Shown here: positions 17,279 through 62,513 of the stretch, in pieces
Layout: every line of letters begins with the position of its first letter
How positions within the stretch are numbered: the stretch's first letter is position 1
Source of the DNA: a virus
Virus genome (UHGV): UHGV-0120889
Direction: 5' to 3' (one strand)
DNA length: 64,000 bases
Program-made: the position numbers and the translations under genes
The notes under the pieces: generated by a model
Seen by the model: only the letters and a program-made list of their open reading frames with translations
Databases searched by the model: none
What the model was told of the DNA's origin: nothing

Positions 17279-17355
17279 TGGTCTCCACGGAGTGATTCGA
17301 ACACTCGACCTCCTGATCCCAAATCAGGCGCTCTACCAAGCTGAGCTACGCGGAG
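17279..17355 (-). tRNA. tRNA-Pro (anticodon UGG)
   Basis: Manual cloverleaf: acceptor CTCCGCG/CGTGGAG, D-arm GCTC..GAGC, anticodon loop UUUGGGA, T-loop TTCGAAT, encoded CCA. Confidence 0.85.
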
Positions 17356-17366
17356 TATTTATTATT

Positions 17367-17441
17367 TGGTGGCCCTGGGTGGAATTGAACCACCGTCTGG
17401 CGATTATGAGTCGCTTGCTTGAACCTTCCAGCTACAGGGCC
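17367..17441 (-). tRNA. tRNA-Met (anticodon CAU; could be Ile-lysidine type)
   Basis: Acceptor GGCCCTG/CAGGGCC, anticodon loop CUCAUAA, T-loop TTCAATT, encoded CCA. Confidence 0.8.
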
Positions 17442-17442
17442 A

Positions 17443-17518
17443 TGGTGCTGATGGCAGGACTTGAACCTGCAACCTATTGATTACAAATCAATTGCACTAC
17501 CAATTGTGCTACATCAGC
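17443..17518 (-). tRNA. tRNA-Thr (anticodon UGU)
   Basis: Acceptor GCTGATG/CATCAGC, D-arm GCAC..GTGC, anticodon stem ATTGA/TCAAT loop UUUGUAA, T-loop TTCAAGT, CCA. Confidence 0.85.
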
Positions 17519-17524
17519 AAAAAA

Positions 17525-17623
17525 GGTGCTAGGTGATGGAATCGAACCACCTATGTATTCAACGACTACCTCGTCTATTTTCAGGATTAAAAATCCTCGC
17601 CCTTGCCAAAGGGCTTACCTAGC
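17525..17623 (-). tRNA. atypical tRNA-like gene (possible anticodon UUU; ~30-nt extra arm)
   Basis: Acceptor GCTAGGT/ACCTAGC, D-arm GCCC..GGGC, T-arm GGTGG-TTCGATT-CCATC present, but 99 nt long with oversized variable region and no encoded terminal A. Confidence 0.3.
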
Positions 17624-17721
17624 TCAGTATGTTGACCATGTTGCTAGTCGGCGATGACGACTGTAACATTTGATAATCCGGTTCTGCTTCCGGCTTTCGC
17701 TTAATTACAAGGTCAACAATA

Positions 17722-17812
17722 TGGCTGAGGGTAATGGAATCGAACCATCATCGAGTCATCCTCAACGGGACGGTTTTCAAGACCGCTTGAGCACCATTGC
17801 TCCCTACCCTCA
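17722..17812 (-). tRNA. tRNA-Ser (anticodon UGA), type II
   Basis: Anticodon arm GCGGT-CUUGAAA-ACCGT, long variable arm, T-loop TTCGATT, acceptor TGAGGGT/ACCCTCA, CCA. Confidence 0.75.
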
Positions 17813-17926
17813 TTTATAAACAATACTGATAATGACACTGATTTTCGAGCAGTTAGTGACTAGTATAAACGACGATAAATATCAATGCCATTATCTGTAT
17901 GATTTATGCATTTAAAACTATAAATT

Positions 17927-18013
17927 TGGTGGGGAGTGGTGGAGTCGAACCACCCGAGTCGTAATGACAATAGATTTACAGTCTACACCGCTACCTCTAC
18001 GGGATAACTCCCC
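17927..18013 (-). tRNA. tRNA-Tyr (anticodon GUA), type II
   Basis: Anticodon loop CUGUAAA and variable arm TGTCATTACGACTCG closely resemble bacterial tRNA-Tyr; acceptor GGGGAGT/ACTCCCC, CCA. Confidence 0.85.
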
Positions 18014-18017
18014 AATT

Positions 18018-18092
18018 TGGCACCCCGTACTGGACTCGAACCAGTGTCAACGGCTTAGAAGGCCGCTGCTTTATCCACTAAGCTAACAGGGC
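18018..18092 (-). tRNA. tRNA-Arg (anticodon UCU)
   Basis: D-arm GCTT..AAGC, anticodon arm GCGGC-CUUCUAA-GCCGT, T-arm ACTGG-TTCGAGT-CCAGT, CCA. Confidence 0.8.
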
Positions 18093-52387: not shown

Positions 52388-52671
52388 TAATGAAAAAGAT
52401 TAACAGTAGTGAAGTCGAGTTTAAACTTGTCGGAAAAGGCACTTACTGGGAAGTTCGTCAAAAGGTATATTTGTTCGGTCTTATTCCTTACTGGTCTAAA
52501 TTCTACTGGGGAGCTAACGAGTGGGGAAGATACGCCACCAAATCAATGGCACTTATTGGTATAGCAGAGTACATTGCAGCCAGAGATAGGGTTGGAGACA
52601 CTTATTACTATACTGCGGACGATATTCGTAACAGTGTTTACGTCCCACAACCACCTGATAGAGACCGTTGA
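52384..52671 (+). CDS. hypothetical protein
   Basis: ORF track. Confidence 0.4.
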   Translation: MIMKKINSSEVEFKLVGKGTYWEVRQKVYLFGLIPYWSKFYWGANEWGRYATKSMALIGIAEYIAARDRVGDTYYYTADDIRNSVYVPQPPDRDR

Positions 52672-52882
52672 TGAAAGTTAAAGTTTTAGATTCAAGCTTC
52701 TATATTGGTCAGGAGCCCTTAGTGGGGAAGTGTTTACTGCTGTCCCTAACGAAGATTACCCCGACCTTTTAAAAATAAAAGGAGCAGACCTGATCACCGC
52801 TGGTGCACCTGAATATTATTTCGGGGAAGAGTCCTATTATACCTTTGGGGTAGGGTCAGATGCAGATATTGTAGAGCTGTGA
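52671..52882 (+). pseudogene. frameshifted member of the small acidic protein family (or programmed -1 frameshift)
   Basis: 33-codon ORF MKVKVLDSSFYIGQEP... stops at 52770; -1 frame continues KIKGADLITAGAPEYYFGEESYYTFGVGSDADIVEL with family-type C-terminus; junction in TTTTAAAAATAAAA run. Confidence 0.4.
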
Positions 52883-52894
52883 TGGGTAACCGTT

Positions 52895-53293
52895 GTGAAA
52901 AATAAACTGTTCAAAGTTACAATGAAAATTCGCGGAGCTTGGAGCGTAAAGCAAGGGCGTATTCCAGAATTTGAGAAAGACTTCTACGTAGTCTCCACCT
53001 CGGAGGAGGCTGCATGCTGGCAAGCTGGCTATGCCTATGCAAGAACCTGGTACGAAGGATACCAGACTGGGGGCTATGACGGAGAAATTATCAGCAAGGG
53101 TGTAGAAGAAATTAATGTGTTGACAAGTGAAAAAGTTTTTGTTATAGTGCATCCAGATTCCAGAGTGAAGCATTACTGGAATGCCAGAACAAAAACTTGG
53201 ACACCGTTTGCAGATTCTGCTACGCCACTTTTAAACCAGAAAGCTCTTGACTCTGCCCCAAGTTATGGGGTTGTTGAAGAAAAGCTAAACTGA
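52895..53293 (+). CDS. hypothetical protein, paralog of 55100..55495
   Basis: Shared C-terminal motif HP.S...YW.....WTP....AT.L with 55100..55495. Confidence 0.45.
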   Translation: MKNKLFKVTMKIRGAWSVKQGRIPEFEKDFYVVSTSEEAACWQAGYAYARTWYEGYQTGGYDGEIISKGVEEINVLTSEKVFVIVHPDSRVKHYWNARTKTWTPFADSATPLLNQKALDSAPSYGVVEEKLN

Positions 53294-53310
53294 AACAGTG
53301 AGGTGCCACT

Positions 53311-53601
53311 ATGATGGATTTAGTTCTGAATATTGATAACGCAGGAGAGCTTAAAGACGATGGTGTAACAAGCATGGACAAACCCTGCTCTGCCGAGGTT
53401 GACTCAAAATGGACCTACAAGTTTGACGGAGAGATCTTCGCAAATGATGAGAAGGTTGTAGATGCTGCAGCCATTTTGAACGCTTTAGGGTACGACCCTG
53501 TGAATTCTTTGATCAAGGATCCTGTTGAGTTTGCAGAGTATGTTCGAAAAATGGCAGATCTTGCTGTGGATATTTTAAAAACTATCGATAACAAGCTGTA
53601 A
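53311..53601 (+). CDS. hypothetical acidic protein
   Basis: ORF track; AGGTG RBS. Confidence 0.4.
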   Translation: MMDLVLNIDNAGELKDDGVTSMDKPCSAEVDSKWTYKFDGEIFANDEKVVDAAAILNALGYDPVNSLIKDPVEFAEYVRKMADLAVDILKTIDNKL

Positions 53602-53607
53602 AAACTG

Positions 53608-53636
53608 TTGACACAACGCTTCAGATTTAGTATCAT
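53608..53636 (+). promoter_or_regulatory. sigma70-type promoter
   Basis: TTGACA (53608) - 17 bp - TATCAT (53631). Confidence 0.55.
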
Positions 53637-53683
53637 TGTTTTCAAAGAGGGTTTGGTTCCCTCTTCTTTAAAAGGAACACGTT

Positions 53684-54001
53684 ATGCAAATTGAAATCAC
53701 TGGCAACGTAGAAATCACTGAAGGTATGGTGTCTTTCATTTCCCACAAAATGTCTAAGCTGGAGCGTTTGCACCCCTCTGCCAACTATGCACGTGTGAGT
53801 GTAAAAGTTGAAAATGATCACCAGGAAGTTATGGCGTTCATTTTTGACAATTCCGGAAAAGAAGTTATTGCCAAAGCTAAAGGTAGCGATGCTTACGAGG
53901 CAACTGACCGTATGGTAGATGTTGCAGCACGTCAGCTGGCTAAATGTGGTGGAAAGAAAGGTAAGGGGAAAGGCAAAGTAAAGATTGACTTTGTAGAATG
54001 A
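53684..54001 (+). CDS. ribosome hibernation promoting factor / RaiA (YfiA) homologue
   Basis: MQIEITGNVEITEGMVSFISHKMSKLE...AKGSDAYEATDRMVDVAARQLAK matches HPF/YfiA family pattern (ITG..EIT....KL....D.Y.A.D....RQL.K). Confidence 0.7.
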   Translation: MQIEITGNVEITEGMVSFISHKMSKLERLHPSANYARVSVKVENDHQEVMAFIFDNSGKEVIAKAKGSDAYEATDRMVDVAARQLAKCGGKKGKGKGKVKIDFVE

Positions 54002-54138
54002 GGTGCTACAATGAGCGTGATTAAGAAATTAGTCCCAAATGTAGAGATTGCATGCTTTGAAATTATGTTTGCAATCGCAGTTGTAGTTAATGTGTTAGGT
54101 TACGGCTATTAATATCAAATAATTGAGGAGACCTCTAA

Positions 54139-54408
54139 ATGAAAATTAAATTATTCAAAACTGAGCTGGCAGACAAAAACTGTGGACTGGTTGAAGGCAT
54201 GATTGTTGAAGCACAACCAGTGGACTATATGAAGGTGGTTCGTGATGCCCTGGGTGAAGGTTTTGATCTGATGGAGCCAGCTCTGCGAGAAGATGTTATC
54301 GAGATGGCTAAAAAGCACACACCTGAGGGTTTGGTGGTGTTTGTTGCACCTGGTAATGGAGAAGAGTTGATTGTAACTCCTGATGTGTATGAGATTGTAG
54401 AGGAATAA
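54139..54408 (+). CDS. small acidic protein, paralog family member
   Basis: MKIKLFKT N-terminus; C-terminus TPDVYEIVEE. Confidence 0.45.
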   Translation: MKIKLFKTELADKNCGLVEGMIVEAQPVDYMKVVRDALGEGFDLMEPALREDVIEMAKKHTPEGLVVFVAPGNGEELIVTPDVYEIVEE

Positions 54409-54499
54409 TCCTGCTTGGATTAGCATACTTCCTCGCTAAGGAAGATTTGTAATTATTTGTGGGAAAGGAATCCCAATCTCTTACCAGAGGTGATACTAT

Positions 54500-54763
54500 A
54501 TGATTGTTTATTTTAAAACTTCAGGTGGATACCCTGATTCTCAAAGCTTGATCGGAAAAACGTGCACAGCATACTCACCTCTTGATGAGGAGGTAAGTGA
54601 TATTCTACGAAATATGTATCGGATTGACCCCCAAGAAGCTTTTGATCAAAACCTTGTATTTGTCAAGGGCTCAGACATGAAGTCTTTGGGAGCATTCCCT
54701 GAAGCAGATGATGATGCCGTTTATTCGTTCATGACTCCTTTTGAAGCTATGGTTGTTGGGTGA
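54500..54763 (+). CDS. hypothetical small protein
   Basis: ORF track. Confidence 0.4.
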   Translation: MIVYFKTSGGYPDSQSLIGKTCTAYSPLDEEVSDILRNMYRIDPQEAFDQNLVFVKGSDMKSLGAFPEADDDAVYSFMTPFEAMVVG

Positions 54764-54767
54764 TAAT

Positions 54768-55100
54768 ATGAAAGTACGCTTTATTGGTGAAACAATTCCT
54801 GTGCATCTCCGGTCTCCTGAGGATTCTGCAGATCTTGCATCTCAAAAGGCGAGAGGTTATGATAAGAAAGTAACCTCAACTGATGTAGTGCTTGAGGCTA
54901 CTAGTCTACCTGACCCTGCTGCATTCTTTAATCATTATGGGTACTATTTCAGCAATCTGATGAATATCGGTGAGCTTGTGTTTATTAGTGGTGGAGAGAT
55001 TGTTAGCAAGCTTGGCGGCGATCCGGATGTCTTTCATGAAACCTGTCCTTTTGCATTTGTGGTAGGTTCAGATGTGGAAGTTATTGAGGAGGTGCGGTAA
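54768..55100 (+). CDS. small acidic protein, paralog family member
   Basis: MKVRFIGE N-terminus at internal ATG 54768; C-terminus SDVEVIEEVR. Confidence 0.4.
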   Translation: MKVRFIGETIPVHLRSPEDSADLASQKARGYDKKVTSTDVVLEATSLPDPAAFFNHYGYYFSNLMNIGELVFISGGEIVSKLGGDPDVFHETCPFAFVVGSDVEVIEEVR

Positions 55101-55495
55101 TGGTAAGCCTATACCGTGTTGAGTATAGCTCAGATACTGTATACAACGTAAGAAGCAAAGATCGCAGCGACAGAGTGCAAGAAATGTATGTTCTTGCCGA
55201 CAGTCCGTTATCTGCAGCGTTCAAGGCAGGGGCTCTTGCATCTCGTTGGAAATTTGAAGGCGGATCTTTCTATGAAGAAACCCTTGAAGATTCTGTTGTT
55301 ATTTCTTCTGTAGAGGTTTCAGATGACTACGAAGGGAAAAAGTTCGTAATGCGGCACCCACACAGCAACATTGCGTACTACTGGGATGTTCTGAACAACG
55401 AGTGGACCCCAGATCTTCAGAAGGCTACTGTGCTAACACCGTTTTTGGCAGATAAGTTCCCACCAGAAGGTAATTTATCCGCACTGTTTCAGTAA
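55100..55495 (+). CDS. hypothetical protein, paralog of 52895..53293
   Basis: Shared RHPHSNIAYYWDVLNNEWTP...KATVLTPFL motif block. Confidence 0.45.
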   Translation: MVSLYRVEYSSDTVYNVRSKDRSDRVQEMYVLADSPLSAAFKAGALASRWKFEGGSFYEETLEDSVVISSVEVSDDYEGKKFVMRHPHSNIAYYWDVLNNEWTPDLQKATVLTPFLADKFPPEGNLSALFQ

Positions 55496-55513
55496 TTTTC
55501 TTGCACACAGGTG

Positions 55514-55544
55514 TTGACAACGCCAACCCTGTGTGAAATAATAC
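55514..55544 (+). promoter_or_regulatory. sigma70-type promoter
   Basis: TTGACA (55514) followed 18-19 bp later by ATAATA/TAATAC. Confidence 0.45.
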
Positions 55545-55574
55545 CTTCATCTTAACAAGACAGGAGACCGATTG

Positions 55575-55832
55575 ATGAAGATTAAATTGAAAAACCTTGA
55601 AACGGCAGAGATTCAGGACGGTGTTGATTTCCGTTCTAAAGATGGTGACATCTTAGAGGTAAATATTCCAACCTACGAGCTGATTAAAGGTTTTGGCAAC
55701 GTTCCGGAAGAGGATATTACAGAAATTCTTATGATGTTGATTCTTGACGGAACTGTGTTTGTAGGTGAAGGTGAGAACGCTATTGCAATCCCAGGCCATT
55801 TTTATGAAGTAGTTGACGAAGAGGTGCTGTAA
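55575..55832 (+). CDS. small acidic protein, paralog family member
   Basis: ATG 55575 with GGAGA RBS; MKIKLKN N-terminus; C-terminus FYEVVDEEVL. Confidence 0.45.
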   Translation: MKIKLKNLETAEIQDGVDFRSKDGDILEVNIPTYELIKGFGNVPEEDITEILMMLILDGTVFVGEGENAIAIPGHFYEVVDEEVL

Positions 55833-56183
55833 ATGAAAGTAGAAATTACTGGTTTTGATGTTAATGTGGTTCCGGAAGATATTTTAGCTAAACTTCCGGA
55901 AGGTTTTGGTAACGGTGTTGTGGTGGATGCTGTTCCTCCTACTAAAGACATTCTGCTGCAGTATGGTGTAGCAGAGGAAGATGTCGATAAAGTTCTTACA
56001 ATGATGGCAATCGATCGTGTTGTCGTTGTTAAAGGTCTCGATAATTTTGAGAGTGATCCACTGATTATTCGTGGAGATGACTACAAAATCATCGATAATG
56101 AAGGCCAAGAGTTCTATGAGCCTTGTGCAGAAGATATTCTTAACTTATTACTGGAAGCAGGCACCGAAGAGGAGGACGAATAA
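55833..56183 (+). CDS. small acidic protein (MKVEITG N-terminus)
   Basis: ORF track; acidic C-terminus EEEDE. Confidence 0.4.
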   Translation: MKVEITGFDVNVVPEDILAKLPEGFGNGVVVDAVPPTKDILLQYGVAEEDVDKVLTMMAIDRVVVVKGLDNFESDPLIIRGDDYKIIDNEGQEFYEPCAEDILNLLLEAGTEEEDE

Positions 56184-56512
56184 TGAAGATTGACCCGTTA
56201 CTGAAGGCTCGTGCAGAAAAAGCGTACACCATTAAGTTGACCAACTTGGTTCCTACTTGTCATCCGGATGTAGGTTGGCCCGAAGGTTTGGTGGAGGGAA
56301 CTGTAACAGCTGCATACCTTCCTAACATCAAATACCTCATGGAAATCTTGGAGCTGGATGAGGAAACGGCAGAAGAGTTCCAGTTGGACATGAAACAAAG
56401 TGGGACTCTGGTTATTCACGGGTGGTACAATACTAAAGATGTAGAAGACCCTCTGGTAACTTCTAATCTGGCATATGAAATCTTAGGGCCTTTGAACCTG
56501 GAGGAAGACTAA
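56183..56512 (+). CDS. small acidic protein
   Basis: ORF track; coupled overlaps on both sides. Confidence 0.4.
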   Translation: MKIDPLLKARAEKAYTIKLTNLVPTCHPDVGWPEGLVEGTVTAAYLPNIKYLMEILELDEETAEEFQLDMKQSGTLVIHGWYNTKDVEDPLVTSNLAYEILGPLNLEED

Positions 56513-56799
56513 TGAAAGATCTGGTTAAGATTAAGATTAAAGATACCAATGGAGAACTCAGCCATTTTGGAATTAATGATGGTGACGAGCTGATCGCACA
56601 CCTGCCTACCAAGGAGGTTGTAAGCAAAGCAGTTGCCGGAGAAGAAGCTGCAATGCAGGCTGCAGGTGTGGATGAAAACTATGTAGCTATGTGCATGTGC
56701 CGAGATCAGGTTGTTCTGTATAAAGCGTATCGACCAAACGGAGCCACGGAGTGGCTTGTATTCCGACCCGAAGGATATGAAATCTTAGAGGCACTATGA
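56512..56799 (+). CDS. small acidic protein, paralog family member
   Basis: MKDLVKIKIKD N-terminus; C-terminus PEGYEILEAL. Confidence 0.4.
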   Translation: MKDLVKIKIKDTNGELSHFGINDGDELIAHLPTKEVVSKAVAGEEAAMQAAGVDENYVAMCMCRDQVVLYKAYRPNGATEWLVFRPEGYEILEAL

Positions 56800-56879
56800 T
56801 AAATCTTGCCAAGGTTGCAACGGCACTGTTAATTATTTGCTGGTCAGTAACCTTAACACTGTGTCTTGTATTTCAGTGA
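56796..56879 (+). CDS. micro-ORF encoding hydrophobic peptide (27 aa)
   Basis: MINLAKVATALLIICWSVTLTLCLVFQ; ATG overlaps previous stop (ATGA). Confidence 0.3.
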   Translation: MINLAKVATALLIICWSVTLTLCLVFQ

Positions 56880-56888
56880 GGTGCTTGT

Positions 56889-57152
56889 ATGAACATCCTG
56901 ATGTGGGTTATAGCAGTGGCGTTTGTTGCATGTTTTTGCTGCTGGGTTGCGGTGAGGATTTCTGTAGCTACCCTTCGGAAGTTGGGGTTCTCAGAATGGG
57001 ATATTAATATCCTTTCTTTTCGCAATGAAACAATCTCAGCCGCCCTGCTTTGTAAGAAATTTAAGTGGGAACCTTGTGAGGTCATGAGCTATCTAAGAAC
57101 AGGCGATATCCCTGAAAGATTTAAAAAAGTTCTTGACGGCAAGGATAAATGA
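56889..57152 (+). CDS. small membrane protein (N-terminal TM)
   Basis: GAGGTG RBS; N-terminal ILMWVIAVAFVACFCCWVAV. Confidence 0.45.
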   Translation: MNILMWVIAVAFVACFCCWVAVRISVATLRKLGFSEWDINILSFRNETISAALLCKKFKWEPCEVMSYLRTGDIPERFKKVLDGKDK

Positions 57153-57180
57153 CAGTATAGTGACTAACAAGAGGTGAGGG

Positions 57181-57321
57181 GTGACTGATTTTACTGAAGC
57201 TTTAATGATGGCCTTGTCTGTTTTAGCGCTATCGGTGTGTTTTGGGGCGTTATTCACATCTCTGGTTAAAGTTTTACATACAGTATTATTACCCAAGGAG
57301 CGCAGTAATGACGAAGATTGA
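57181..57321 (+). CDS. micro-ORF encoding hydrophobic peptide (46 aa; GTG start)
   Basis: GAGGTGAGGG RBS; ALMMALSVLALSVCFGALFTSLV; 3' end overlaps next gene. Confidence 0.3.
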   Translation: MTDFTEALMMALSVLALSVCFGALFTSLVKVLHTVLLPKERSNDED

Positions 57322-57559
57322 CTTGAATGCTGGTGATCATGTTGTTGTCAAATGCGTTGGAGATTATCTTGGATTCACAATCGGCAATACTTACGAGGCG
57401 GTAGTGGCGAAGGTTTATCATGATAAAGTCCTCAGTCTTGTATTTGACTGTGATGATGACGGAGATGACCGTTACGTCTGTGAGGTGCTGGCTCGTGACG
57501 ATAGTGAAGACCAGAAATTCCTGGTTATTGAACTGAACGGTATTTTTGTAGAACGTTAA
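57308..57559 (+). CDS. hypothetical protein (83 aa)
   Basis: ATG 57308 with AAGGAG RBS. Confidence 0.45.
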   Translation: MTKIDLNAGDHVVVKCVGDYLGFTIGNTYEAVVAKVYHDKVLSLVFDCDDDGDDRYVCEVLARDDSEDQKFLVIELNGIFVER

Positions 57560-57587
57560 TTTAAAACAACATAAGGAGACTCTTACT

Positions 57588-57893
57588 ATGGCTAAATCTA
57601 AAGTTGAACTGTTCACCTCTCTTCCTTCTGACACTGCAGAACGTGATCGCCTTCGCAAAACAATTGAAGAACTGGTGGAACTCCAGCTTCAGATTAAAGA
57701 TTTGAAAGATGCCATCAAGGATATCATTCTTGTTGAGAAGCAGGATCATCTGTATTCTCCTAAATTCATCAAATCTTTGGTGGCTACAGAGTTTGATATC
57801 CGCTACGAAGCTGAAAAACGTCGCGCTAAGATTGAAGAAGAGGTTGAGCACATGTCTGAGGCAGACATTCTGTTCAAACGCTCTGTAGAATAA
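57588..57893 (+). CDS. hypothetical coiled-coil protein
   Basis: AAGGAGA RBS; helical charged sequence. Confidence 0.45.
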   Translation: MAKSKVELFTSLPSDTAERDRLRKTIEELVELQLQIKDLKDAIKDIILVEKQDHLYSPKFIKSLVATEFDIRYEAEKRRAKIEEEVEHMSEADILFKRSVE

Positions 57894-57894
57894 T

Positions 57895-58266
57895 ATGGCA
57901 GAGGGGCCCCTCTTTCACTATTTGCAAAAGGAACCAGCTATGAGAATGCCAATCACTGTGAAAGAGCTAAATGAACGTGATGCAGGTGGTCTATGGCCTG
58001 CACGAAAAATCCGCTGCGTCTATATGAAAGAGAATCTTGAACATCTTGATCAACAGATCAAGGTCGGTGATATTTTCGAGGTCTTCTATTCCAATCGTCG
58101 CAACTGGGAAACCATTCAGCCTTCTGGTTTTGTTCTTGCCAAACTTGACACTGGAGAAGTGATTATTCCTGGGTTGGATATTGTCTTCGAAATTATCCAG
58201 GAGTGGGATCCGGATAAGATTAGATATGAAGAGTTATTCGGTGAAGGTATTATCAAACCTGTGTGA
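57895..58266 (+). CDS. hypothetical protein (start may be 57940)
   Basis: ORF track. Confidence 0.4.
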   Translation: MAEGPLFHYLQKEPAMRMPITVKELNERDAGGLWPARKIRCVYMKENLEHLDQQIKVGDIFEVFYSNRRNWETIQPSGFVLAKLDTGEVIIPGLDIVFEIIQEWDPDKIRYEELFGEGIIKPV

Positions 58267-58574
58267 GGTGGATTATGTCTACAAAGGCGGCTAAATACTC
58301 CTATATGCCATCAACCTCTGCAGAGGTAGACTTTAGTTTCGATGTGTTTCCACTGTTTGAGGTGGTTCTGGCATACCCAACAATACTATCTACTCCTGAA
58401 TCACTTGTGCCTGTTAAGTTGCAGAACGCTATGCATTCCATGCACTACAACAACAAATGTAGGCACAGATGGTGTCAGGACGAGGAAAAAGATTTGGATA
58501 GTTTGAGAGATTTTGACAGTCACCTTTTGACACCTTTCAGCTACTCCAACCTTGATAAGCCCTCGTGGGTATAG
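58263..58574 (+). CDS. hypothetical protein
   Basis: ORF track. Confidence 0.4.
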   Translation: MRWIMSTKAAKYSYMPSTSAEVDFSFDVFPLFEVVLAYPTILSTPESLVPVKLQNAMHSMHYNNKCRHRWCQDEEKDLDSLRDFDSHLLTPFSYSNLDKPSWV

Positions 58575-58598
58575 CAAAATATCAAATTTAAGACACCT

Positions 58599-58627
58599 AG
58601 GACGCTCTGTGGCGTCCTTTTCTTTAT
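58599..58627 (+). terminator. rho-independent terminator ending the plus-strand gene block
   Basis: AGGACGC-TCTGTG-GCGTCCT hairpin followed by TTTCTTTATC. Confidence 0.65.
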
Positions 58628-58787
58628 CTGGTGCACGATTGCATACCTTGGGTAGTTAATCTCATTACAGAGCGTTTAAGAGCTCCCTACAAACAACTCC
58701 ATATTTCGAGCGTAGCGAGAACGCACGTCCGTTTTGACCCAAATCACCATACGCTCGGATTTTAACCAAACCCTCGCGGCGTTTCTG

Positions 58788-58816
58788 TTGACACATTGCC
58801 GATCCAGTGATAGTAT
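58788..58816 (+). promoter_or_regulatory. sigma70-type promoter
   Basis: TTGACA (58788) - 17 bp - TAGTAT (58811). Confidence 0.5.
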
Positions 58817-58848
58817 CCACACATAGTTTGTAGAATATGGAGTACACA

Positions 58849-58938
58849 ATGAGAACATTGTCCGAAGTTTTAGTGGTGATCCTGATGATCATTACGTCCA
58901 TAGTGGCTGTTGCCGGAATACTCACGGGTGGAACATGA
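58849..58938 (+). CDS. micro-ORF encoding hydrophobic peptide (29 aa)
   Basis: MRTLSEVLVVILMIITSIVAVAGILTGGT; stop overlaps next ATG (ATGA). Confidence 0.35.
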   Translation: MRTLSEVLVVILMIITSIVAVAGILTGGT

Positions 58939-59147
58939 TAAACACACATGCATCTGAAGAGACATCCAAAGGAGTGACTATATGTCCCTTGACTGAGCCA
59001 GTGAAAGAGGAAAACTTCGATTCTGAAGATTCTCCATCTTCGCTCCAGGTAGATCCTGAGGTTGATGACCTAACGTGGGAGGACATCGTAGATATCTGGT
59101 TCTCTATTATGCCTGAGCACGAAGAGTTCAGGGGCGGCAGACTATGA
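58935..59147 (+). CDS. hypothetical acidic protein (70 aa)
   Basis: ORF track. Confidence 0.4.
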   Translation: MINTHASEETSKGVTICPLTEPVKEENFDSEDSPSSLQVDPEVDDLTWEDIVDIWFSIMPEHEEFRGGRL

Positions 59148-59186
59148 AGCACCGAGCCCACACAGGTTCCTCATGCTAAAGCATGG

Positions 59187-60376
59187 CCTGAAGAGGCAAA
59201 CGTGCATAATTCCAGCGTATTGGAACGCATAAAACCCTGTTCACACTCTCATTTTCCAGAGGAGATTTCATGAAGATAGAAATATTTGGTGGAGCTGACA
59301 ACACTCGTGGCCTGATTTACCTTGAATTCGAGGAATCATACCTGCCAGAGGTGTTAAATATAGACTCTGTTGCTGAGGCTTTGGGAGTAAACCCTAAAGA
59401 ACTCCACTCTTGTGCTGAGATCGATGGTTGGGAAGAGACCATGAACATTGATTTCAGTGAAGTAGAGGATGAACCGCTGGACTGACACACAATTAGCTGC
59501 CCGGCTAAAGTGCTGGAAGCACCTATAACACATCTTTCAACTAAATTTCCTACCACCACAATCACTTACCTCCCACACATGACTGTTTGCTTGTTTAGTG
59601 AGCAGTCATGCCTTGACATTCTTGCCTATCTTGATAAAATTAAGTTCTTCTCTTTTCTTTTACCGAGTAATTCGGGTTTTCTGTTCTCTTCGGTTTGAAG
59701 GGGTATGGAGATACACCTGAGTGAACAGGGTGAACAACCGAACCTTTGGCTATGGCATTAGCATGGCGAAGCGGACGGGTGACGAAAGAGGGGCCGGAGG
59801 ACACCAGTCACTGCCATATGATATATGGGTGATAACCTGAAGAGTCTGAATAAGTGTTTAAGTACCAGTCAGAGGAAAAGGTGAATGGTAGCCGAAGGGG
59901 GAGGGGGGTTTCTTGTATCTTTAATTTGTATATTATGTATACACTTGTAAACCAACACCATCTGAATTTGTTTACCACAGAAAGCGGATAGAGACAAATA
60001 TTACCTATTAAACTTGAATTATTTATAGAAAATACCACAACACCACTTAAGTATTTGATTTTACACATAAATCCTACAGATATTCACCCTCCATATTTAA
60101 CATACTTGTAACATATTCCATACTCTACCTGTCTGATCAATTTCCCCAACTACACCCACCATATTTTCCCTGTCTGTACCACCCCTGACCCGCCGGGAGT
60201 CCCGTCATATCTGGCTTTCCAGCAAATATCACACCCACAAATATCATTGCCTGAAGAGGGTTTCATCCCATAATACATGCCTTACCTGAAGAGCGCTTCA
60301 TACACCACGTAAATTTTTTAATTGACCCCCTCCCCGCCGCCGGAGAGGTTGTCTTTTCCCACACAGACCTGAAGAG
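59187..60376. repeat. five dispersed copies of 9-mer CCTGAAGAG in an ORF-poor region
   Basis: Exact copies at 59187, 59836, 60250, 60285, 60368 (all same orientation). Confidence 0.8.
59270..59485 (+). CDS. small acidic protein (MKIEIFGG N-terminus)
   Basis: GGAG RBS; N-terminus like family members. Confidence 0.4.
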   Translation: MKIEIFGGADNTRGLIYLEFEESYLPEVLNIDSVAEALGVNPKELHSCAEIDGWEETMNIDFSEVEDEPLD

Positions 60377-60903
60377 TCAGTCAGAAATATCTGAATGGAC
60401 CCAATTCTGCCCTGTCATGAGCGGTAGCGACTGGAGTGCTGCCAGGCGGACGAAATGGGAATACTTCTCATTCTTATAATAATTCTCAAATATCGAGGCA
60501 GTGAGGAAAATTAATAGGTGAGGCCGTTCACACAGTGGCACAACATTTGCAACCTATCTTGTGGGGGTGAATGAGAATACCTATCATTGTGAGAATAGTT
60601 ATCATTACGGGCAATTTAACATAATACCCATTATGCGCACCACTGGCGATCCATACAGGGATTGATAACATGAGTTACAGTTTACGCATATAACAATCAT
60701 ATTTCTTACTATTTGTGTGGGATATAGTTAGCAGCCGATAGATTAGATATTGACCTGTGGACTTCCAACCATCTAGACGTCTAAACGCCCACACAACAAG
60801 GATTATACATACATTACTGAATGTAAACAGGGCCGCAAAAATGCTACCATACCAGTTTGTAAATTTTTCATGCAGCACTTGACAAAGAGGAGGAAAACTT
60901 GTC

Positions 60904-61028
60904 TGACATAATGTGACCTAACTGACACAACATGACACTTTTACACACCTATTAGTTTACACACTGGATTGTTTACATTCCTGATTGTTCACATGCTAAC
61001 CATTTACATGATTGACTGTTTACACACC
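60904..61028. repeat. iteron-like arrays: TGACA x4 then TTTACA(C/T) x6 at ~16-bp spacing
   Basis: TGACA at 60904-60937; (T)GTTTACA-type units starting 60940, 60955, 60972, 60988, 61003, 61019. Confidence 0.7.
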
Positions 61029-61036
61029 GATAATCA

Positions 61037-61287
61037 GCCATGCCATTCGTTTGCATGACAATAATTATACATGACAATAATCGCACTGATTATAATTAGC
61101 ATGACATAATATAAAAGCAGGGCAACTATTAGCAGATCTATAGTTGCCTTGCTTGTCATGTCATGATTAACTAAATACAAGGCAACTATGATCTGATTAA
61201 TAGTTTGCAGACAAACTATCACGGGGGTGATGGTTACTGCTTTTATATTATGTCGCGACTCCGTCGCGCCATGCCATTCGTTTGCAT
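61037..61287. repeat. 251-bp element bounded by perfect 20-bp direct repeats with nested inverted repeats
   Basis: GCCATGCCATTCGTTTGCAT at 61037..61056 and 61268..61287; inner 15-bp inverted repeat 61106..61120 / 61237..61251; palindromes GGCAACTAT-N10-ATAGTTGCC (61121..61148) and 61181..61208. Confidence 0.8.
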
Positions 61288-61949
61288 AGTTGCCTTATTG
61301 TTACAGGTAAAATAATTGTATTGTTAATTATTTCTTATCTTTCTATTAGTCATCTAATGATTCCAGTTAGTATAGTAACGTACAGTAAACATTAGACGAC
61401 TAAAGATTTCTCTGCTTATGATAACCTAACGTGACAATTTCAGACTGTTTACGAAAAATGTTGACACCTGAGCTGATTTATGTTATGCAGTTTACACGAA
61501 TAATTATTTTATGCAGGTATTGACTATTCCGTTATTCTATGGTTGGAATAAATACTTAGCAGACTATAGAATGGTGAGCGTACGTAAATTCTGAGATCTG
61601 TCGGCTATAGTTATACTCGATTTTTCACGTAGAACACGCTTTTTGGTTTGTGTAAGTGTATGACTTATAAAGATTTTTAGTTGTTGACAAGATATTGGAG
61701 ATGTGCATCAGATTAAATTTTGTGCAATAGCTACATTACGTGCACTTTTGGAAGAAAAAACGTGTAAAAATGGCCCTGCTACCACACAATGAAAGATTAT
61801 GCAATAGTTATTTTATATGTATATTTGTACAGTGTGTGGGATTAATGGCTAGTCAATTATTCCACTTGCCAGGTAGGGCCGTTTATGGTAGGAGAAGAGC
61901 AGACAAAAAGAAAGGGGCCTTTAAGCCCCTTGATAATTCAATTAAGAAA

Positions 61950-62369
61950 TTATAATGATTCGTATATTTCAAAAATCCGATTTGCCAGGTCGTTACGGTA
62001 GCGGAATTTTTCATCACGCTTGATCATTAAATCCTTATAGCCGTACTCTTTAAGCACTTCATTAACTTTATGGCGGCATACCTGCATATTATCTTGAGCG
62101 TCACCAATAAATCTGTTGCTATGGTGCATGGCTTTAATTTCTTCTTCCAGGACCAGGGCAACTATGCGGACCGGATCAAGCTGATAGGCGGTAACATCCA
62201 TGCGGCATTGTAAACGGCTTTTTACGTCTGCCACCGGATATACTGCAACCTCTTCCCCGTCAACATTGACAATAATTAGTTTACCATCGATTTCGAATCC
62301 TTTCGCCGCCGGACCGTGACAAAAAGCGTTATCAAAGCTATATGCCGGATTATTAGATTTAATGTTCAT
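61950..62369 (-). CDS. hypothetical protein (139 aa)
   Basis: ORF track. Confidence 0.45.
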   Translation of the reverse strand: MNIKSNNPAYSFDNAFCHGPAAKGFEIDGKLIIVNVDGEEVAVYPVADVKSRLQCRMDVTAYQLDPVRIVALVLEEEIKAMHHSNRFIGDAQDNMQVCRHKVNEVLKEYGYKDLMIKRDEKFRYRNDLANRIFEIYESL

Positions 62370-62513
62370 GGTGTTTTTACCTCTTAGTTAATTTTCTTAC
62401 AACTTCCCTTCAAAAAAGAATATAGCAAAACTGCCGATCCCTGTCAACCAGGGATAGCATAATTTTTATGTGATCAAGGGGCTTTATTGCCCCTGACCAT
62501 GTAACTTGTTGTA

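Follow-up and report, generated by a model that had tools for sequence, protein, structure and literature searches.

Phage homologues of hibernation factors are among the few cases of a virus carrying a direct ribosome ligand, and whether such a protein silences, protects or re-awakens ribosomes matters for understanding how lytic phages deal with hosts that are starved and dormant. One candidate lies in UHGV virus genome UHGV-0120889, of which we analysed a stretch of 64,000 nucleotides (hereafter, the window). A first-pass annotation had proposed that an open reading frame (ORF) of 105 amino acids (aa) at 53684–54001 encodes a phage homologue of the hibernation factors HPF and RaiA, with its own consensus promoter and placed among early genes. 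Is this a genuine hibernation factor, to which lineage does it belong and what might it do to the ribosomes of the host? The ORF is exactly as described: it lies on the + strand, starts with ATG and encodes 105 aa plus a stop codon (translation MQIEITGNVEITEGMVSFISHKMSKLERLHPSANYARVSVKVENDHQEVMAFIFDNSGKEVIAKAKGSDAYEATDRMVDVAARQLAKCGGKKGKGKGKVKIDFVE, from the ORF list). Judged from its sequence, it is a genuine phage version of HPF, the ribosome-hibernation factor of bacteria. The gene is also already known, as the long-annotated, published HPF of rV5-like coliphages, because it is annotated in the rV5 record and was published by Mizuno et al. in 2019; the homology has been public since that record, and no new entity is added here. 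New are the isolation of the clade, strong purifying selection on the gene, a partly remodelled set of ribosome contacts and the lack of an RMF homologue in the phage collection. The locus comprises the following elements:

53608–53636, + strand: sigma-70-type promoter-like site, TTGACA-17-TATCAT (rV5 'P144'), from a consensus scan (11 of 12 positions)
53645–53665, + strand: short GC-rich hairpin in the 5' leader, AGAGGG-loop-CCCTCT, from reading of the sequence; of doubtful significance
53672–53676, + strand: Shine–Dalgarno-like AAGGA, 7 nt before the ATG, from reading of the sequence; phage Murica has an annotated ribosome-binding site at the equivalent position
53684–54001, + strand: hpf-like coding sequence, orthologue of rV5 ORF144 / gp139, from the ORF list, with PF02482 and TIGR00741 above their cutoffs
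53684–53950, + strand: folded part of the protein before the tail, from the AlphaFold2 model, Foldseek and omega of 0.03–0.11
53951–53998, + strand: Lys/Gly-rich C-terminal tail, residues 90–105 (GKKGKGKGKVKIDFVE), predicted to be disordered

The similarity of the protein to the HPF family is far beyond chance. In the profile search that had been suggested as a check, Pfam PF02482 (Ribosomal_S30AE) scores 48.3 bits (gathering score 23.7; E = 1.8e-12; profile positions 1–83 of 88), and TIGR00741 (HPF/YfiA family) scores 45.9 bits against a cutoff of 40.9. The motifs on which the first-pass annotation relied (MQIEITGNVEITE, KLE, D69-Y71-A73-D75 and RQLAK) are all there, as is the Lys/Gly-rich tail, GGKKGKGKGKVKIDFVE, at the end of the protein. 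The best sequence matches in the PDB are E. coli HPF (2rql, 4v8h and 6h4n; E of around 5e-12), with RaiA chains far weaker. An AlphaFold2 model (overall pLDDT of 83, with around 90 over residues 1–80 and 79 over residues 81–90) has its strands and helices in the order expected for the S30AE/HPF family (E2–7, H13–29, E33–43, E46–55, E60–67 and H70–89). Foldseek superposes this model on V. cholerae HPF (4hei) with an rmsd of 1.0 Å and on ribosome-bound E. coli HPF (6h4n_x) with an rmsd of 1.1 Å, and every one of the top 36 PDB matches is a chain of HPF, YfiA, pY or a related hibernation factor (best TM of 0.91–0.94). The structure is a predicted rather than an experimental one, and the S30AE/HPF fold is present in it. 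Profile scores, PDB matches and the fold search establish membership of the S30AE/HPF–YfiA superfamily, and the proposed homology to HPF and RaiA is borne out by the profiles, the predicted fold and the comparison with solved structures. The accompanying suggestion of the first-pass annotation, that host translation is manipulated directly, is speculative.

Superfamily membership is established; the assignment to a subfamily is not. The best NCBIfam model is that of the short HPFs (NF007780), with identities to E. coli HPF in the range of 41.5–44%, and globally the protein is 41.5% identical to E. coli HPF and 25.7% identical to RaiA. The score for NF007780 is nevertheless 55.8 bits against an equivalog cutoff of 125, and that for the RaiA/YfiA equivalog (NF007654) is 17.7 bits, with the cutoff at 158. 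Given this NF007654 score and the identity of 25.7%, the product name 'RaiA' in RefSeq is generic and assigns no subfamily. Short HPFs have around 95 aa and end soon after helix alpha2, whereas the phage protein has 105 aa and a 16-residue disordered tail. The C-terminal dimerization domain of long HPFs was not found; PF02482 is the sole detected domain in the 105-aa protein, which ends in a disordered tail.

The surroundings of the gene indicate the kind of phage that carries it. A 4-kb stretch around hpf is 97–98% identical to Vequintavirus (rV5-like) coliphages (121 matching records), the protein is 99% identical to the rV5 protein cluster (P0001), and the window is that of an rV5-like Vequintavirus. 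Of the 121 phage records covering the region, 119 carry the gene. By tblastn, the window protein was detected in 119 phage records; in 118 the identity is at least 90%, and the other one, at 42%, is a contig of a Salmonella genome within the phage collection. Detectable HPF homologues in this collection are essentially confined to Vequintavirus. Eighteen records named 'Campylobacter phage' are rV5-like coliphage genomes with around 96–99% protein identity, and are for that reason probably mislabelled or contaminants.

The names given to the gene differ among records. It is variously labelled 'sigma 54 modulation factor', 'ribosome hibernation (promoting) factor' or 'RaiA', it is mislabelled 'ATP-dependent protease La type I' in vb_EcoM_bov10K2 and NWU phages, and ORF144 of the rV5 reference record is described as 'similar to Klebsiella oxytoca probable sigma(54) modulation protein'. 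The cellular gene owes its old name, 'sigma-54 modulation protein', to its rpoN-operon context; we dismiss sigma-54 modulation as a mechanism for the phage gene. An 89-aa gene two genes downstream (54139–54408) is labelled 'sigma 54 modulation factor' in phages pangalan, APCEc02 and A6-1; it has neither a Pfam match nor similarity to HPF, so we reject it as a second such factor and regard the label as a propagated annotation error.

Outside the genus, relatives of the protein are distant. A word-index protein search returned only the phage copies and one 64%-identical cousin, and cellular relatives were reached only by an exhaustive HMMER search of 1.84 billion cluster representatives. Even this search gave only 22 matches at E ≤ 1e-3 and only one below 1e-10, a protein of 103 aa (P0004) that is 64–65% identical to the window protein; all other genuine HPF matches are 27–45% identical, and one further match (P0006) was discarded as a spurious repeat protein. 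In phage-like contigs of about 125 kb from metagenomes, the gene for P0004 is found at the syntenic position. The window HPF belongs to an isolated phage clade, and recent capture from an enterobacterial host does not fit this isolation. The metagenome contigs themselves (L002–L005, around 125 kb) represent an uncultured sister lineage of Vequintavirus with the syntenic, 64%-identical HPF, the same −35 block and a short leader without a hairpin; this lineage was not found in the phage genome collection.

Purifying selection on the gene is strong. For the core of 88 codons, omega is 0.03–0.11 in 9 of 10 pairwise Vequintavirus comparisons, with dS of up to 0.72, and the tenth comparison, with rV5, has zero non-synonymous changes. 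Variants and dN/dS were taken from GenBank records, as a scan of IMG/VR gave only 2 loci. Between the window and the P0004-type lineage, HPF retains 64% amino-acid identity, compared with 37% and 58% for the flanking genes. No homologue of RMF was found among 50,697 phage records, and PADLOC defence models gave zero matches for HPF or its neighbours.

One departure from cellular HPFs lies in the contact surface. We aligned the phage protein with 106 enterobacterial HPFs and 18 diverse homologues (E. coli numbering throughout). The fold-defining residues G7, T13, L27, E44, G58, A63, D69, Y71, D75 and D79 are kept in the phage proteins, as are the contact residues K23, K26, E60, R83, Q84, K87 and K91. 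Both phage lineages replace the contacts E51 (by M or S), T53 (F or R), H55 (F), K80 (V or T) and K89 (G or S), as well as M70 (A) and A72 (E), and the conserved cellular DMYAAID motif reads DAYEATD in the phage protein. In a recent cryo-EM preprint, K80, R83, K87 and K91 are the ribosome contacts shared by HPF and YfiA, with R83 the single essential arginine at m4Cm1402, whereas E51, T53 and V62 form the m2G966 motif and H55 and E60 contact uS9 (10.1101/2025.10.07.680626). Position 80 also varies in cellular long HPFs that bind ribosomes (V, T or Q in 4 of the 18 diverse homologues). On the basis of the contact residues that are kept and those that are replaced, the interface appears partly preserved and partly remodelled.

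The second departure from cellular HPFs is the tail. Residues 90–105 have pLDDT below 50 and include 7 Lys, and they make the protein around 10 residues longer than the 95-aa HPFs; 106 of 119 enterobacterial HPF clusters have 93–96 aa. The tail ends in an aromatic–acidic motif, which is DFVE in the window, DFGE in most relatives and WDY in P0004, and it is not demonstrably homologous to the tail of RaiA. It is encoded by G/A-rich runs and is polymorphic: frameshifts in these runs shorten the protein to 99 aa in Murica and 101 aa in APCEc02, and these may be real variants or sequencing errors. The 'TGNNVEIT' residue that is missing from the window protein is restored in some relatives.

The promoter claimed by the first-pass annotation is a real motif match. 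The site is annotated in the rV5 record (NC_011041) as 'Sigma70-type promoter; P144', and its −35 block (AAACTGTTGACACA) is invariant in 9 of 9 aligned phages, including the divergent P0004-type lineage in which HPF is 64% identical. Promoter-like sites as a class are not enriched in the region (21 found versus 16.6 expected); the extended −35 motif is enriched in the window (10 matches versus 2.1 expected). Transcription of hpf is probably by host RNA polymerase from this sigma-70-type promoter. That the gene sits among early genes, as had been suggested, we infer from the many small + strand ORFs arrayed here, which have promoters of the sigma-70 type. The leader hairpin was rejected as a regulatory element or terminator: it folds no better than shuffled sequences (z = −0.53) and is not conserved, being absent from the P0004-type lineage.

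Several other features of the neighbourhood were recorded. A conserved ORF encoding a hydrophobic protein of 33 aa (MSVIKKLVPNVEIACFEIMFAIAVVVNVLGYGY; 54011–54112) starts 10 nt past the hpf stop codon; a promoter-like site of its own (53985–54012) overlaps the end of hpf, and in relatives its product is called a hypothetical or membrane protein. On each side of hpf lies one copy of a duplicated two-gene module (52730–53293 and 54741–55495). The two proteins of 132 aa and 131 aa are paralogues by blastp (1e-8), weak similarity links the small ORFs upstream of them, and the proteins of the module have zero Pfam matches. Farther downstream, around 2.5 kb between the + strand array of small genes and the following − strand array (59500–62000) is poor in ORFs, with GC content down to 0.35, and the corresponding stretch of rV5 (104013–106618) has no annotation. 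Its repeats (cluster at 61037–61303) comprise a 20-nt direct repeat with perfect copies 231 nt apart, a 15-nt hairpin (AAGCAGGGCAACTAT/ATAGTTGCCTTGCTT) with a diverged second copy, and a perfect inverted repeat of 18 nt. An Rfam scan of 52500–62500 gave zero matches; the stretch may be a replication origin or a regulatory region. Elsewhere in the window, a tRNA cluster on the − strand (17279–18092) encodes tRNAs for Pro, Met, Thr, Ser, Tyr and Arg. Within it, ARAGORN reports a 99-nt 'tRNA-???' with a four-base anticodon (17525–17623), which may represent a pseudo-tRNA, a tRNA with an intron or one that resembles a frameshift suppressor.

Hibernation factors bind vacant ribosomes in a salt-labile manner and are abundant mainly in stationary phase, and a salt wash of the 0.5 M NH4Cl type probably strips them. 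These properties matter for reading the one experiment on a phage member of the family. Mizuno et al. (2019, PMC6375957) identified the proteins of rV5, FV3, JES-2013, FFH2 and typing phage 14 as viral HPFs and suggested that they might compete with the cellular factor, preventing the formation of ribosome dimers. When the rV5 protein was expressed in E. coli, its peptides were detected in crude extract and none were detected in purified 70S or 100S ribosomes, and 100S ribosomes were unchanged (PMC6375957). The cells were harvested at an OD600 of 1 (late-exponential) under continuous arabinose induction and ribosomes were pelleted through a sucrose cushion with 0.5 M NH4Cl; the authors themselves listed growth phase and salt stripping as possible causes of the negative result (PMC6375957). 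The HPF annotation was repeated by Mathieu et al. in 2020 (PMC6969025), and our literature searches found no later functional study. The assay conditions would probably strip any hibernation factor and, owing to the late-exponential cells and the 0.5 M NH4Cl wash, the negative result is weak evidence against ribosome binding. Growth to an OD600 of 1 under continuous induction, with normal ribosome profiles, argues against a potent shut-off of translation.

We favour, with somewhat better than even confidence, a protein that binds vacant host ribosomes in the manner of RaiA, either parking idle 70S ribosomes or averting 100S hibernation of the host. It would bind vacant 30S or 70S particles in the cleft of the decoding centre through the kept residues of helix alpha2 (R83, K87 and K91), together with K23, K26 and the extra basic tail, and idle ribosomes would be parked as intact, inactive 70S monomers. 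Ribosome binding in this cleft is the best-supported reading: the fold is intact, R83, K87, K91, K23 and K26 are kept, lysines have been added and the gene is strongly constrained. In RaiA, the tail is directed toward the RMF site, and the protein inhibits the assembly of 100S ribosomes by RMF (sources include 10.1101/2025.10.07.680626). Because the phage tail runs past the end of enterobacterial HPF, and it is the extended tail of RaiA that blocks RMF, function would be nearer to that of RaiA than to that of an HPF that matures 100S ribosomes with RMF. The C-terminal extension, the lack of a phage RMF and the lack of a rise in 100S ribosomes on expression all favour RaiA-like behaviour. The phage would benefit from a ribosome pool that is preserved or controlled, or kept from 100S hibernation by the host, rather than from an outright shut-off of translation. 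Against this reading stand the single experiment in which peptides of the phage HPF were absent from purified 70S and 100S ribosomes (after 0.5 M NH4Cl, in late-exponential cells), the replacement of E51, T53, H55, K80 and K89 in both phage lineages, a core that is nearer to HPF (41.5%) than to RaiA (25.7%; 17.7 bits for the RaiA equivalog model) and a tail that lacks demonstrable homology to that of RaiA and is cut short by frameshifts in two or more deposited genomes.

The main rival is that ribosome binding has been lost, and that the fold has been re-used for another RNA or protein partner or the gene is a dispensable passenger. It would account for the negative ribosome pull-down (Mizuno et al. 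2019, PMC6375957), for the five contact positions replaced in both phage lineages, with DMYAAID turned into DAYEATD, and for the isolation of the clade, the best matches of which, besides the 65%-identical phage cousin, reach at most around 45% among 1.84 billion representatives. However, the strength of purifying selection and the near-universal presence of the gene across the genus speak against a passenger, and the kept R83, Q84, K87, K91, K23 and K26 with the extra lysines fit RNA binding; K80 is variable also in cellular long HPFs that bind ribosomes. The salt wash used in the negative assay is, moreover, one that probably strips hibernation factors. We regard loss of binding as unlikely, although it deserves serious consideration. 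A version of ribosome binding that we hold to be doubtful is an anti-hibernation decoy, in which the altered beta3/alpha2 surface and the poly-Lys tail would let an HPF-derived protein sit in the HPF/RaiA site and keep RMF out, yet be displaced with ease. Such a decoy, if real, would keep host ribosomes from 100S dormancy or from an RMF-inducing, dormancy-type phage defence, and rV5-like phages could then replicate in stationary-phase or stressed gut E. coli.

It is very unlikely that the protein is a true HPF-type co-factor that acts with host RMF to mature 90S into 100S particles and drives host ribosomes into hibernation. Its core does most resemble the short gammaproteobacterial HPFs (NF007780 is the best model, with 41.5–44% identity to E. 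coli HPF), its best structural matches are HPFs and RMF is supplied by the host in stationary phase. However, the score of 55.8 bits falls short of the 125-bit equivalog cutoff, K80 and K89 are lost, and the protein is 10 aa longer than the 95-aa HPFs, at an end that in RaiA points toward the RMF site. Expression left 100S ribosomes unaffected (Mizuno et al. 2019, PMC6375957), and hibernation of all ribosomes would also halt the synthesis of phage proteins. The first-pass annotation had raised the shutting down of ribosomes during takeover, and a factor of this kind, which would block both the A site and the P site of host ribosomes and silence host translation, is the least probable reading, and a highly improbable one. 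Cellular members of the family do occlude the mRNA and tRNA sites, and the gene lies within a small-gene cluster with a sigma-70-type promoter. Yet the family binds vacant, not translating, ribosomes and cannot tell host from phage mRNA, and E. coli reached an OD600 of 1 while arabinose induction was continuous, the protein was detectable in extracts and ribosome profiles were unchanged. For RaiA-like binding and its rivals alike, the isolated, strongly constrained clade and the partly remodelled contact surface with its added basic tail offer handles for a functional test.

Among known systems, the closest is rV5, in which ORF144 / gp139 (ABI79209, YP_002003641) is the same gene, with 99% identity, the same position, promoter P144 and the same neighbours. 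Compared with rV5-type relatives, the window protein has V104 where most have G104, with no biological difference of note. The HPFs of jumbo phages (Cronobacter phage GAP32, K4F6Q6; Escherichia phage PBECO4, L7TII8) are S30AE-fold proteins of around 110 aa (compare Table 1 of PMC6375957) that are only 18–20% identical to the window protein over the structural alignment, and they were not found by tblastn with the window protein at E ≤ 1e-3. This low identity and the lack of detection suggest that the HPFs of Vequintavirus and of jumbo phages are independent acquisitions.

E. coli short HPF (YhbH, 95 aa; PDB 2rql and 6h4n chain x) is 41.5% identical to the window protein and shares with it K23, K26, E60, D69, Y71, D75, D79, R83, Q84, K87 and K91. 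Unlike it, the phage protein carries a 10-aa Lys/Gly extension and has E51, T53, H55, M70, A72, K80 and K89 replaced, and the phage gene lacks the rpoN-operon context and had no effect on 100S ribosomes when expressed (PMC6375957). E. coli RaiA (YfiA or protein Y, 113 aa) differs more in sequence, with only 25.7% identity, and the phage tail is shorter and much more basic than that of RaiA. RaiA nevertheless has the same fold and, as in the phage protein, a flexible C-terminal extension beyond helix alpha2, and both tails end in an aromatic and acidic motif (DF[GV]E or WDY in the phages, NFVEEVEEE in RaiA).
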